Shown here one piece after another: positions 30,001-36,000 of a stretch of 41,434 nt of DNA. Each line of letters begins with the position of its first letter. Positions within the stretch are counted from its first letter, which is position 1. The position numbers were made by a program. Origin of the DNA: a virus (taxonomy: Duplodnaviria > Heunggongvirae > Uroviricota > Caudoviricetes). The DNA is taken from IMG/VR virus record IMGVR_UViG_2534681878_000039; one strand, written 5' to 3'.

Positions 30001-33000
30001 TCAGCAGACTGTCGGTAATCTCGTTAGCAACGCGCATGAAACCATCTTCGGTATCTGCCACGCGATGCTCCACGACCTCCAGTTGAGGCCTGTAATCAGC
30101 TAACTTAACGACGCCCATGTTTCACTCCTGCTTTGGCTAGTCTGTAAACACCAACAAGGCGCTCTGCGAACGCCCTGTTATTTGCTGCGGCTACCACTAA
30201 TCCCTCAGGTGAATCAGGGTGTCGAATCTCTTCTTTTTCCTGGTATTTCTTACGACGTTTTGTCATAATTACTCCTGTGGATTGATCCAGTAATTCCCTC
30301 AGAATTGCATATCAATTTGCTTAAAATCCTCGGTGGCAGCCGGGGATTTTTTCTTTGTGATTTCATCAAGCGCATACTTAAAAGCCCTGCTAATCGGACT
30401 GATGTCTGATGCCATTCCGAAAGCACACAAGACCGAAGCAATAAACCGCCAGTCCGTTCTGCTTATCTTCGATTCATGACAGCCAATCATCTTTGCCAGA
30501 CCGCGCTGTGTAAGCGTTGACAGGTTGATGAGTAAATCTGTTTCTGCGCGATCAACGTCGCGCTGTGATAGTTTGCTGTAACTTGTTCGTTCCATTTCTT
30601 AAGATTTCCAATAGTGAATAGTTAGTTGAAAGGTATGCGTGGAAACGCATATGGCCTTAGTTGGTCAGATATCTTGGGACTCGCTTTTCAGCGACGTAGG
30701 ACGAATGTCCGTTGTTACAAAGAGCGGCTCCGCTTATTAAGCGGCTTTGTGCTCCGGCGGGAACACGTCATCAAGACTTACTTTTGCGCCTAACTTGTTT
30801 AGACACGCAACAAGAGCACGGCATGTTTTAAGGTCTGGGAAGCGACGACCAGATTCCCAATGTCCGATAGCTCCCTGTGTGCATCCAACTGCCTTAGCAA
30901 GTGTTGTTTGAGAGATATTCAGTGACTCTCGATATTTTCGTAGGTTGCTCATATGCCCTCCATAGTAACCACGAATAAAAAAATACAATATGTACTTCTC
31001 AAATACAAGTAAAAATACACATTGTGCATGGATGGTTCCAGTACAGAGCGTAATAATAAGGACATGAAAATGAAATGGTATGAACTGGCTAGATCCAGAA
31101 TGAAAGAGCTCGGCATAACTCAAGAGAAGTTAGCCGAAGAGCTAGGTATGACGCAGGGTGGAATTGGACACTGGTTGCGCGGATCTCGTCATCCATCTCT
31201 TAGTGATATTGGTGTGGTGTTTAAATACCTTGGTATTGATAACATATCATTCAACCACGACGGGACATTTTCACCTGTTGGCGAATACTCATCGGCCCCA
31301 GTTAAAAAACAATATGAGTACCCTGTTTTTTCTCATGTTCAGGCTGGGATGTTCTCTCCAGAACTCAGAACCTTTACCAAAGGTGATGCGGAGAGATTGG
31401 TAAGCACAACCAAAAAAGCCAGTGACTCTGCATTCTGGCTTGAGGTTGAAGGTAACTCAATGACCGCACCAACAGGTTCCAAACCTAGTTTTCCTGACGG
31501 GATGTTAATTCTGGTTGACCCTGAGCAAGCTGTTGAGCCCGGCGATTTCTGCATAGCCAGACTTGGTGGTGATGAATTTACCTTCAAGAAACTGATCAGG
31601 GATAGCGGTCAGGTGTTTCTACAACCACTAAACCCGCAATATCCAATGATCCCATGCAATGAGAGTTGTTCCGTTGTGGGGAAAGTTATCGCCAGCCAAT
31701 GGCCTGAAGAGACGTTTGGGTAAAGAGGATAGATGGAGTTTAATGGCCATGAGTATCAAGCGGTCAAAAAGAAGTTCATCTATTCATTGAAAGCATAAGG
31801 CCATCTGAGTATATCCGTAATGATCTGGATATTGTCTATAACATCAATGACCGGACGATAGATATCGGTGAGCAGCGTCCTGTATGGCAGGGTGAGGCAG
31901 GTGAAAAAACGTCCTGCCATCAACAAGAATCAAGTGCATCCGCTCTCTGGACAGATGGAAAATTTATTGGATGCAAAAAGATATGAAATAACACCTGTAT
32001 AGCACGGAGCTTTCTCTGACCGATGCACTTGAAGTTGTTAGGGCTGACCCAGCCTGCTGTTTCTTTAGGTAAGAGAAAAGAGATTTAGGAGATGAAAGGT
32101 CGCAGAGGTGCGGCCTTTTTTATTGAGAGTGGATCTTGAACGGAAATTCTCAAGACTTGAGTCTTGCATGCAAATCAATTCCTGGATAAACTCGATCTGA
32201 GTCAATAACTTAGAGAGAGAGCAAATGGCAAAGTCAAACGTTAGCGTGCAGGCATTCAAGGACTTCCTTGAAGAGCTTATGTCGCTGAACATAATGAAGG
32301 AGGCCACCGCTCGAAATTTAAAAAACTCATCCGCTCGCCTCTTAACGGTAGTCCAAGAAGAGGAAATGGGTGATGTTACTCAGCTTGATGTGAATGAGCT
32401 TGCCGAGCGATACATCAACGCAACTGAGCCGAAGCCTAGCGACAGCAGCATTACTGCATATAAAAGCCGCATGGAAAGTGCAATCAAAAAGTTTGTAGCT
32501 TTCCAGTCTGGTGAAGAAATCCCATACACTCCGATTGACAAAGAATCCAGTGAGGAAAAAGATTTGACTGGCGAACCAACAAAAGTCGAAGGCAAGGCTA
32601 ATGCACTTCATACCTATGATCTTCCAGTAGTTCTTCGACCTGAATCAGGGGTTACAGTAACGATTAAAGGCATTCCTAACGATATCACAAACGAAGAAGC
32701 CGAACGCATCTCTTCAATTCTGAAGGTTTACGTTCGGCCTCAATAATGCAAAAGCATTCAGCACAATGTCCAACTCCCCAGTCCGACATTGATGCTGTTT
32801 AACCAGAGCCTCCAAAAGGAGCCCTTGTTAAGGTACACAATATTTGCGATGTAACCTTAGCGCGTCTGGTACATTTTTTCAAGCGGTTGTAGGGCTGCCG
32901 CCAATATGAGAAAACACAGATGTCTACATACAATTTGAATGACCAATTCGATCGAGAAGTTCATGTGAATGCCTATGAACGGATAAGGCATGGAAATCTT

Positions 33001-36000
33001 GAACATGTGTGTGAGCATTATCGCTCAAGGCCACACCGCTAATCATCAACCCGGCCTCCATGCCGGGTTTTCTTTTCCTCTCGCCCAAAAAAACACATAA
33101 CCAATTGTATTTATTGGAAAATAAATAGATACAACTCACTAAACAACGCAATTCTGATCTCTCCTTACATCGCCGAGGCAATACACCCACGCTAAAAAAC
33201 AATACTATTAAATACAAAGCGTTGTAAAAAAACGCCCCGTTTTAGAACAAATTGTATTGACCAAGTGAAGTACATATCGTACTATTTAACCATCAGCAGG
33301 ACGCTGGAAGCCAAATGGAACAGACTGGCAGGCTCTTTAAACAACGTCGACTCTCGACTACGTGGCTGAAAAGCCAGATCACCCAACCACATAAGCTGTG
33401 GGATGCAATGCCGAAGCAACCGTCTCAGGAGGAGCTTCGAGATTGCATCGCCAAAGTTTATTCGGGAGGAATCTATGTCCAGAAAAACAGAATTTAAAGG
33501 CACCGCAGCTTCTCGCCGTAGAGCTCGTCGCGCAAACCTGCAAAGTCAGGAGGCGATTAGCTCCGACAAACTACACAGGCCAACCCCATCACGAGTGGTC
33601 TTACAATGCAAACGCAAACCAGCAATGAGAGCAGAAGTAATAACACTGACAACGTTGACCAGAAAATATGAAGGCTCAACTTGTCTTCCAAATGTAGCTC
33701 TTTACGCGGCAGGCTACCGTAAATCCAAACAACTGACAGCAAGATGACTTGTGTTGGTCGCCAGAAAATGAAATTAGGCAGCAAACCACTTATTTGAGGT
33801 GATATATGGAATTTCATGAAAGTGCGATTTGTGATTTTCGCGCTAACGCAAATTCAGTAAAACCACAGCCAATTGCAGTTCTTTTTAAAACAATGGGTGC
33901 GTGGGCTGTTTTATGCTTCGCCGCTGACGACACTGACGCAAGAATGGCAATAGGACAAGAGATGGAGATGGACCCGACAAACGATGAATTCATAATTTAT
34001 GGCGCTCCATCTAATTACTTACTTGATACCTGCAACATTTACAACAAGGCTGCCTGATGGTGGCCTTTATTTTTGGCATAAACAACAGAATAAACACAGC
34101 ACTGTGTATTCATTCCAACGAGTGAATACACGGAGCAATGTCGCTCGTAACTAAACAGGAGCCGACTTGTTCTGATTATTGGAAATCTTCTTTGCCCTCC
34201 AATGTGAGGGCGATTTTTTATCTGTGAGGATATGAACAGATGTCAAACATCAAAAAATACATCATTGATTACGACTGGAAAGCATCAATAGAAATTGAAA
34301 TCGACCATGACGTAATGACAGAGGAAAAACTTCACCAGATTAATAATTTCTGGTCAGACTCTGAATACCGACTCAATAAACACGGCTCTTTATTAAATGC
34401 TGTATTAATCATGCTGGCGCAACATGCTCTGCTTATAGCAATTTCAAGCGACTTAAATGCATATGGTGTTGTGTGTGAGTTCGACTGGAATGATGGAAAT
34501 GGTCAGGAAGGATGGCCTCCAATGGATGGTAGCGAAGGAATAAGAATTACCGATATCGATACATCAGGAATATTTGATTCAGATGATATGACTATCAAAG
34601 CCGCCTGAGCGCGGCGTTACCGCATACCAATAACGCTTCACTCGAGGCGTTTTTCGTTATGTATAAATAAGGAGCACACCATGCAATATGCCATTGCAGG
34701 GTGGCCTGTTGCTGGCTGCCCTTCCGAATCTTTACTTGAACGAATCACCCGTAAATTACGTGACGGATGGAAACGCCTTATCGACATACTTAATCAGCCA
34801 GGAGTCCCAAAAAATGGATCAAACACTTATGGCTATCCAGACTAAATTCACTATCGCCACTTTTATTGGCGATGAAAAGATGTTTCGTGAGGCCGTCGAC
34901 GCTTATAAAAAATGGATATTAATACTGAAACTGAGATCAAGCAAAAGCATTCACTAACCCCCTTTCCTGTTTTCCTAATCAGCCCGGCATTTCGCGGGCG
35001 ATATTTTCACAGCTATTTCAGGAGTTCAGCCATGAACGCTTATTACATTCAGGATCGTCTTGAGGCTCAGAGCTGGACGCGTCACTACCAGCAGATCGCC
35101 CGTGAAGAGAAAGAGGCAGAACTGGCAGACGACATGGGAAAAGGTCTGCCCCAGCACCTGTTTGAATCACTCTGCATCGATCATTTGCAACGCCACGGGG
35201 CCAGCAAAAAAGCCATTACCCGTGCGTTTGATGACGATGTTGAGTTTCAGGAGCGCATGGCAGAACACATCCGGTACATGGTTGAAACCATTGCTCACCA
35301 CCAGGTTGATATTGATTCAGAGGTATAAAGCGGATGAGTACAGCACTCGCAACGCTGGCAGGGAAGCTGGCTGAACGTGTCGGCATGGATTCTGTCGACC
35401 CACAGGAACTGATCACCACTCTTCGCCAGACGGCATTTAAAGGTGATGCCAGCGATGCGCAGTTCATCGCATTGTTGATCGTCGCCAACCAGTACGGCCT
35501 TAATCCGTGGACGAAAGAAATTTACGCCTTCCCTGATAAGCAGAACGGCATCGTTCCGGTGGTGGGCGTTGATGGCTGGTCCCGCATCATCAATGAAAAC
35601 CAGCAGTTTGATGGCATGGACTTTGAGCAGGACAATGAATCCTGTACATGCCGGATTTACCGCAAAGACCGTAATCATCCGATCTGCGTTACCGAGTGGA
35701 TGGATGAATGCCGCCGCGAACCATTCAAAACCCGCGAAGGCAGAGAAATCACCGGCCCGTGGCAGTCGCATCCCAAACGGATGTTACGGCATAAAGCCAT
35801 GATTCAGTGTGCCCGTCTGGCCTTCGGATTTGCTGGTATCTATGACAAGGATGAAGCCGAGCGCATTGTCGAAAATACTGCATACACTGCAGAACGCCAG
35901 CCGGAACGCGACATCACTCCGGTTAACGATGAAACCATGCAGGAGATTAACACTCTGCTGATCGCCCTGGATAAAACATGGGATGACGACTTATTGCCGC

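Follow-up and report, generated by a model that had tools for sequence, protein, structure and literature searches.

A predicted autonomous operon with a structured RNA and a small open reading frame between cI and pL of an Stx2 phage

What does a Shiga toxin 2 (Stx2) phage carry between its repressor gene cI and the promoter pL, and why should a gene located there resist deletion? The question was addressed in IMG/VR virus record IMGVR_UViG_2534681878_000039, a stretch of 41,434 nucleotides (nt) that is called the window here. Its + strand corresponds to the leftward direction of lambda, and the gene order is cro (- strand), cI (31070-31723, + strand), the studied region, pL (about 33257-33285) and N. 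Region 31724-33100 is 100% identical to that of the Stx2 phage VT2-Sakai/Sp5, of Nil2 and of about 40 further Stx phages and was found in 235 of 5426 complete Escherichia coli genomes; the window is an Stx2 phage of the Sp5/VT2-Sakai type. The region contains a 173-amino-acid (aa) open reading frame (ORF), called gene A here (32225-32746, + strand; ECs1184, H0093, Nil2 ORF22, phrog_2602), and a 40-aa ORF (32920-33042, + strand; H0092, phrog_21154), both labeled hypothetical in every record. The initial annotation had placed both ORFs in a cI-led operon in the rexAB position, behind a hairpin-rich leader of 500 bp. The ORFs, their orientation and the position were found as described, and the operon structure was not: judged from its sequence features, segment 32094-33077 is best explained as one autonomous moron operon that would lie outside the cI transcript.

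The unit consists of two bounding terminators, its own predicted promoter, gene A, a folded RNA and a small ORF, in the same order and with the same spacing in all loci. The closing terminator lies 301 to 344 nt after the gene A stop codon in 24 of 24 distinct loci, with the small ORF in between. Gene A, the leader of the small ORF, the small ORF itself and the terminators are inherited jointly, down to about 30% identity of protein A, in unrelated contexts. In the Enterobacterales, protein A homologues are always encoded between a cI-type S24 repressor gene and N. The module adjoins at least six different cI types and is also found outside the immunity region: in IMG/VR contigs encoding 33 to 46% identical proteins, the gene follows replication genes or lies beside an arc/ant-like region (locus L061), and a relative of about 30% identity is inserted antisense in a tail gene cluster, complete with a 47-aa zinc-ribbon small ORF and a terminator. 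A scan of genome contigs returned one locus only. By its positions, the unit is not tied to the cI-pL slot, and it occurs in many prophages of gammaproteobacteria.

Morons in the sense of Juhala et al. (2000) have their own promoter and terminator, are inserted between unrelated genes in different phages and deviate in composition. All of these properties were found in the module, namely a predicted promoter, terminators, varied contexts and a low GC content (44%; window, 51%). The cI-N interval is a known moron site (PMC7067206), and the equivalent slot of 933W is occupied by the Stk kinase module, in agreement with the rexAB position noted initially. The content of the module is so far uncharacterized; its protein family is unannotated and its RNA is absent from Rfam.

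The stretch between cI and gene A was found to contain, instead of a 500-bp leader, a dead gene, a strong terminator and then a conserved promoter with inverted repeats. A tblastn search with the intact 933W-type and SH2026Stx1 proteins located a 113-aa DUF3024 gene at 31733-32072 (+ strand), with 81% DNA identity to the gene that follows cI in 933W-type phages and 81 to 85% amino acid identity over three frames. Two frameshifts and one in-frame stop are present; the homology in three frames and the in-frame stop indicate that this is a pseudogene. Intact copies follow cI in 933W-type phages, SH2026Stx1 and Proteus prophages (loci L075, L076 and L005). The gene travels with cI rather than with the module and looks like a conserved companion of cI with an undescribed role. 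In the 933W-type phage P32 (L075, 2918-4586), the intact DUF3024 gene is followed in this slot by genes for a 153-aa "putative resolvase" and the Stk kinase and by an ORF of 54 aa.

The 5' edge of the module is an intrinsic terminator (32094-32124, + strand), identified by fold energy and cross-genus alignment. It has an 11-bp stem (32094-32119) followed by U6, with a folding energy of -15.9 kcal/mol (z = -4.1 against shuffled sequences). Its motif, AGGTCGC..GCGGCCTTTTTT, is kept in E. coli, Salmonella, Yersinia, Cronobacter, Proteus and Serratia and also stands upstream of gene A in two relatives of 35% identity (L071 and L072). Alignments of the six genera start matching exactly at this hairpin, and the 5' boundary rests on these cross-genus alignments. 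In O157:H7 strain 9234 (L084), an IS1203/IS3-family insertion sequence (IS) element lies exactly between the DUF3024 pseudogene and the terminator, at the equivalent of about 32093-32097. A recombination junction at 32093-32097, first read from partial E. coli matches (query 374-1377 or 1-369 only), was rejected, as it corresponds to this IS1203 insertion. None of the stems initially listed for the leader is part of a leader. The region of the stem near 32025 and a hairpin at 32041-32055 fall within the pseudogene, the stems near 32095 and 32120 are one terminator, and that near 32150 represents the inverted repeats over the conserved promoter.

The predicted promoter of gene A, P_A (32164-32192, + strand), has a -35 box TTGCAT, a 17-nt spacer and a -10 box TAAACT, with a transcription start site at about 32199. 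It is weak by consensus scan and absent from the promoter list of that scan. Its geometry is common to the genera, TTGAYY/TTGCAA-17/18-TAAACT/TAGACT/TAGAAT, with TTGATC and TTGATT among the -35 boxes elsewhere. Operator-like inverted repeats, read from the sequence at 32131-32165 (either strand), overlap the -35 box. They include TCTTGA (32134-32139) with TCAAGA (32150-32155) and the palindrome AAGACTTGAGTCTT (32152-32165), which occurs once in the window, at the module's own promoter. Distant relatives have analogous GATC-rich inverted repeats at the equivalent place. The dead gene, the strong conserved terminator and the conserved promoter indicate that gene A is insulated from cI and has no 500-nt leader; it is probably transcribed from its own predicted promoter.

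These results bear directly on the initial model, a rexAB-like exclusion operon cotranscribed with cI through a structured 500-nt leader. The position and orientation fit that model, and the annotators of AP000422 described the hairpin at 33048 as the terminator of the pRM transcript. It is nevertheless very improbable, because the supposed leader is a pseudogene with a strong conserved terminator, the module has a promoter of its own and the module persists when the IS element separates it from cI. From this arrangement, cotranscription with cI from pRM would not be expected. Searches of PADLOC-DB, Pfam and NCBIfam detected no homology to RexAB, Stk or any catalogued antiphage system and gave a defense or exclusion role no homology support. 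The module resembles lambda rexAB and 933W stk in slot, orientation and nature, as prophage-expressed accessory cargo; it is unlike them in sequence, in having its own promoter and terminators, and in being found outside the slot as well. The broader point, that the rexAB slot contains an undescribed system expressed in lysogens, stands.

Two further observations concern the promoter region. GATC (Dam) sites, located at 32132 and 32194 in the window, cluster around the gene A promoter/operator in every group; E. coli has one at about +1, and Vibrio-like loci have three to four within 60 nt (L052-L072). This clustering hints at methylation- or replication-coupled control of gene A. In Cronobacter, Yersinia, Proteus and locus L039, an extra insert of about 70 nt is located between the upstream terminator and the gene A promoter (L017, L015, L039 and L019). 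It carries a good promoter-like site, TTGACG/TTGACA-16/17-TATACA, and in some loci also a second terminator hairpin, AACCCTC..GAGGGTTTTTTT. The insert may be a tiny additional transcription unit.

The 40-aa ORF, initially listed as possible, exists and is conserved. It was annotated in AP000422 as H0092 and dropped from the current RefSeq annotation of Sakai. Three types of small ORF were found at this place in the module. Type 1 (40 to 44 aa) occurs in E. coli, Salmonella, Yersinia, Cronobacter and Pseudescherichia, with a 9-nt in-frame indel, and its variable sites are distributed 5/2/12 over the three codon positions. Type 2 (47 aa, with a CxxC...CxC zinc-ribbon) occurs in Serratia and others, including the tail cluster insert, and type 3 (57 to 61 aa, basic) in Proteus and Vibrio-like phages; the variable sites of these two other types are distributed 11/7/35 and 22/17/53. 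This clear third-position bias indicates that the small ORFs of all three types are, on comparative grounds, translated and under purifying selection. The small proteins are hydrophilic and His/Arg-rich or zinc-ribbon-like, with isoelectric points (pI) of 7.0, 9.0 and 10.4. No relation among the three types was detected by profile comparison with hhalign, and the idea that type 1 is a decayed zinc-ribbon of type 2 was therefore unsupported. PADLOC-DB gave 0 matches for the small ORF of the window and for a Proteus small ORF. By eye, the 3' end of gene A showed no + strand promoter that could serve the small ORF alone.

Gene A and the small ORF are separated by a structured RNA of about 170 nt (32747-32919, + strand), recognized by folding and compensatory changes. 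The 173-nt stretch is about 90% conserved among enteric genera, yet indels break every frame, indicating that it is noncoding. A call of a 33-aa ORF in the leader of Salmonella was rejected as noncoding, because that ORF is frameshifted in E. coli. The RNA has a minimum free energy of -54.4 kcal/mol (z = -3.6) in the window, with helices P1 (32759-32775/32780-32797), P2 (32802-32809/32862-32870) and P3 (32827-32837/32850-32861), a mini-hairpin (32810-32813/32818-32821) and a further helix (32883-32887/32897-32901). In this fold, UUUUUUCA (32874-32881) pairs with UGAGAAAA (32907-32914), the purine-rich stretch before the AUG of the small ORF. In the alignment of six E. coli-type sequences, 94% of cells pair, against 31 to 49% when the pairing partners are slid, and nine compensatory pairs were found. 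In a sister group of 15 Proteus, Serratia and Vibrio-like sequences, four helices and a pseudoknot are 90% paired (35 to 43% when slid). Compensatory changes occur in 20 of 37 pairs there, the pseudoknot included, and 0 of 500 shuffles reached such support. A covariance model built from these relatives, R1, matched the E. coli-type leader of L047 with 19.5 bits (E = 0.011). The two groups of leaders are positional equivalents of unproven common ancestry. Rfam has no family for the RNA of the window or of its relatives; only sub-threshold matches at chance level were obtained (GadY, 20 bits against a cutoff of 45).

The P1 hairpin (32759-32797) showed a peculiarity of its own. Its loop and mismatches occur in both orientations among close relatives (L055 and L058; the window and L011). 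The E. coli sequence is CAACTCCCCAGTCC and its Salmonella counterpart AGACTGGGGAGTTG, and Vibrio-like loci show TTTGGCGA or TCGCCAAA. The imperfect P1 palindrome as a whole has repeatedly flipped.

Two motifs of the intercistronic RNA, TCAAG and TAG(Y)G, are invariant and unpaired and are always 26 nt apart. Read on the opposite strand they give TTGA(T/A)A-17 nt-TAnnGT, and their invariance may be attributed to an antisense promoter. In the window, this predicted sigma-70 promoter (32854-32882, - strand) has a -35 box TTGAAA (reverse complement of 32877-32882), a 17-nt spacer and a -10 box TAAGGT (reverse complement of 32854-32859). In 26 loci with 19 distinct sequences, the TTG of the -35 box and T1, A2 and T6 of the -10 box are the same throughout, and every spacer measures 17 nt. 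The promoter would produce a cis-antisense RNA of about 100 nt (32745-32847, - strand; start at about 32847), predicted from its fold and from strand-specific pairs and complementary to the 5' half of the leader and the gene A stop codon. The predicted RNA has a first hairpin, then the reverse complement of P1 as a 3' hairpin and then a U-rich tail over the gene A stop codon; its fold has an energy of -43.3 kcal/mol (z = -6.0; 0 of 200 shuffles). The terminator-like tail AAAUUCUUUUU follows the 3' hairpin in most relatives. At two positions of the first hairpin, G-U is the commonest pair in relatives. The sense RNA would have C-A mismatches there, pointing to strand-specific selection on the antisense molecule. 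Lambda OOP RNA is similar in being a short antisense RNA that ends in a hairpin and overlaps an upstream gene, cII, at its 3' end, stop codon included; the predicted RNA differs in also covering the leader of a downstream small ORF and in belonging to an accessory module, not to core regulation.

The operon is closed by an intrinsic terminator (33048-33077, + strand), with a hairpin at 33048-33069 and a U-rich tail to about 33077 (-14.3 kcal/mol; z = -5.0; 0 of 200 shuffles); the initial placement at 33050-33077, before pL, agrees with this, and pL and N lie downstream. A published Hfq binding peak is located in the 3' part of the module. Tree et al. (2014) reported EcOnc20 as an orphan Hfq-binding site in Sp5 on the module's strand, found by cross-linking and analysis of cDNA (CRAC; their Table S2). 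Sakai coordinates are about 142 nt lower in NC_002695.1 than in NC_002695.2 throughout Sp5, which affects the mapping of published peaks; the AsxR terminator and the PR'/Q and stx2B positions served to calibrate the offset. Uncorrected, EcOnc20 would lie at 33024-33149, over the terminator. After the +142-nt correction it lies at 32882-33007 (+ strand), over the ribosome-binding region and the first two-thirds of the small ORF. With or without correction, the peak supports indirectly that lysogens transcribe this end of the module and that Hfq binds the RNA. Expression in lysogens, as proposed initially, is likewise supported indirectly by recovery of the ECs1184 protein in the Sakai RNA-interactome proteome, at a false discovery rate of 0.065 (PMC7618764).

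The Hfq peak could also mean that the 3' part of the transcript, EcOnc20, is itself an Hfq-dependent small RNA (sRNA) acting on host mRNAs, like other sRNAs of Stx phages, and that the small ORF is incidental. The peak was found in four passes, an ARN-rich stretch around the AUG is combined with a Rho-independent terminator, and Stx phages are known to encode several sRNAs. We consider this improbable, since the third-position bias shows the small ORF to be translated and selected and a discrete sRNA is not backed by Northern evidence. In addition, Hfq commonly binds ordinary mRNAs at ARN motifs in their ribosome-binding sites.

Protein A is acidic (pI 4.85), in agreement with the initial description. 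AlphaFold predicted a four-helix N-terminal domain (residues 8 to 94) resembling the core-binding domain of recombinases, with confident scores (predicted local distance difference test, 85 to 90). A disordered linker (residues 102 to 129) and a small beta-beta-alpha domain (residues 130 to 166, low confidence) follow. A sub-threshold Pfam SAM-like match agrees with the four-helix domain. The core-binding (SAM-like) fold is shared with tyrosine recombinases; a catalytic domain with the RHR-Y active site was not found in protein A, which ends at 173 aa and has no Phage_integrase match. It is unlike both these enzymes and the recombinase-derived repressors MrpR and SroF of SPbeta-like phages in having no catalytic or pseudo-catalytic domain, in being acidic and in its different C-terminal domain. 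The protein could not be assigned to a family, as had been noted: neither Pfam nor NCBIfam gave an above-threshold match, PADLOC-DB gave 0 matches and Rfam offered no fit. A phmmer search of the PDB returned nothing for protein A or for a type 3 small protein. A full hidden Markov model search yielded 653 cluster representatives (50% identity), 243 of them at E <= 1e-10, nearly all of 160 to 206 aa and with the same two-domain layout; among the 150 matches listed, relatives ranged from 110 to 238 aa. DNA binding by protein A is plausible from the modeled fold and is not secure, because the protein is acidic even in its N-terminal domain.

The fold also suits another explanation, in which protein A is an ordinary accessory regulator, a DNA-binding or nucleoid-associated factor that tunes genes of the host or the phage, with the small protein as a cofactor, the RNA features are routine and the failure to delete the gene was technical. 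The low GC content is typical of morons, and in the distant members L078 and L079 the stretch after the gene is too short to hold the RNA and the small ORF, so that protein A may act alone there. This explanation is judged unlikely. The tight linkage of gene A, leader, small ORF and terminator over deep divergence, with three proposed layers of repression, exceeds what a simple regulator needs, and the operator palindrome is limited in the window to the module's own promoter.

Mondal et al. reported that deletion of ORF23 (ECs1184) failed in a K-12 Sp5 lysogen and "appears lethal," and they proposed that loss of the gene is lethal and that it is needed for stable lysogeny (PMC5155283). The anatomy of the module suggests how this might come about. 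The operon would be transcribed from P_A, and protein A would be a negative regulator, either an autorepressor acting on the inverted repeats over the -35 box or a binder of the small protein. The leader fold would sequester the purine-rich stretch before the AUG of the small ORF, and the antisense RNA, from its promoter inside the leader, would pair with the junction of gene A and the small ORF and further block or cleave the small ORF message. The small effector would be near-silent in the lysogen and released upon loss of protein A or of the antisense RNA; deletion of gene A would additionally remove the terminator tail of the antisense RNA. Such a release would account for the resistance of ECs1184 to deletion from the Sp5 lysogen. 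Three independent devices would all act to limit the small protein. Together with the reported lethality, they make a toxin-antitoxin-like unit, acting in addiction or abortive infection through a multiply repressed small-protein effector, the best functional guess. We hold this reading tentatively, with rather less than even confidence.

The module can be likened to type I toxin-antitoxin systems (hok/sok, symE/symR and ralR/ralA) in its RNA logic and to P22 arc-sar-ant in its operon logic; it does not have the complete set of defining features of either. As in type I systems, a small protein (here a translated ORF of 40 to 61 aa, two of its three types shorter than 60 aa throughout) is preceded by a long leader whose fold would mask the ribosome-binding site, the location is in a prophage, and removal of the repressing part is lethal (for the module, as reported in the literature). 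A cis-antisense RNA of about 100 nt with its own promoter and terminator hairpin is predicted as well, from the conserved promoter geometry, the strand-specific G-U hairpin and the fold. The module is unlike these systems in having a gene for a 173-aa protein upstream in the operon and in its small proteins, which are hydrophilic and basic or zinc-ribbon-like; none of the three types is a hydrophobic membrane peptide. Type II systems have adjacent or overlapping genes of known families, and here a structured spacer separates the two genes and no Pfam toxin-antitoxin family was matched.

In P22 immI, the first gene encodes a small regulator of the ribbon-helix-helix type, Arc, the antisense RNA sar, made from a promoter in or near the intercistronic region, covers the junction before the second gene, and the product of the second gene, Ant (about 300 aa), is harmful if derepressed. 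The module has the same layout, with a first-gene regulator, a predicted intercistronic antisense RNA and a downstream effector whose release is proposed to be harmful. It could accordingly control lysis and lysogeny, with the small protein as an antirepressor or pro-lytic factor held off by protein A and the antisense RNA. Loss of protein A would then induce the prophage, so that deletion would be lethal and the authors' proposed role in stable lysogeny would follow. That ECs1184 could not be deleted, that the module adjoins cI in lambdoid phages and that the L061 copy lies beside an arc/ant-like region all suit this explanation. One would expect an antirepressor to track its repressor, whereas an identical small ORF and gene A occur beside three different Salmonella cI types, and the module is also found in a tail operon and after replication genes. 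Moreover, the module is related to Arc, Ant and sar neither in sequence nor in fold, protein A being core-binding-like, and it differs in its effector of 40 to 61 aa and its long, pseudoknotted intercistronic RNA. Control of lysogeny in the manner of immI therefore has a low probability.

Several points weigh against the toxin-antitoxin-like reading. The small protein of E. coli is neutral, hydrophilic and unlike classical type I toxins, and its Shine-Dalgarno sequence is weak. Protein A is acidic, its putative DNA-binding domain included, and labeling of ECs1184 was not above the control in a PNK RNA-binding assay (PMC7618764). R1 scored the window leader at just 9.9 bits (filters off), and the best covariation evidence is therefore that of the relatives, not of the E. 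coli-type sequence itself. On the antisense side, the -10 box of the window agrees with the consensus at three of six positions, the tail after the terminator hairpin is just moderately U-rich and no antisense transcript has been reported from this locus. No PADLOC match was obtained. The failed deletion of ECs1184 may have been technical, as the unrelated ECs1180 likewise resisted deletion (PMC5155283).

In its widest form, the toxin-antitoxin-like reading would make the module the founder of a widespread new class of prophage addiction or abortive-infection systems, in which a stand-alone protein of the core-binding fold acts with a pseudoknotted RNA and a cis-antisense RNA to gate an exchangeable tiny effector, taken from three unrelated cassettes, and the lysogen is killed or induced once the gate is lost. 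This generalization is doubtful at present. The main Stx2 phage of E. coli O157:H7 carries the module in an accessory slot that is expressed in lysogens, and the module could bear on the stability and induction of Shiga toxin prophages. Its anatomy makes the unexplained undeletability of ECs1184 testable: which element is toxic, and is it protein A, the folded leader or the antisense transcript that restrains it? Should the hypotheses drawn from the anatomy be confirmed, the devices of prophage maintenance and defense would gain a widespread protein family that has so far escaped annotation, an RNA structure without a place in Rfam and an unannotated small protein.

Elsewhere in the window, ECs1180 (H0090; 33806-34057, 83 aa), located directly after N, is the second Sp5 gene reported to be undeletable; PADLOC and NCBIfam searches gave no match for it. 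The Pas sRNAs and AsxR/AgvB are located elsewhere in the phage and are unrelated to the module. Near the stx region, at 19180-19391 and 20802-21042 (both - strand), the window contains the sRNA STnc100 (Rfam match, 158 bits) and three tRNA genes.

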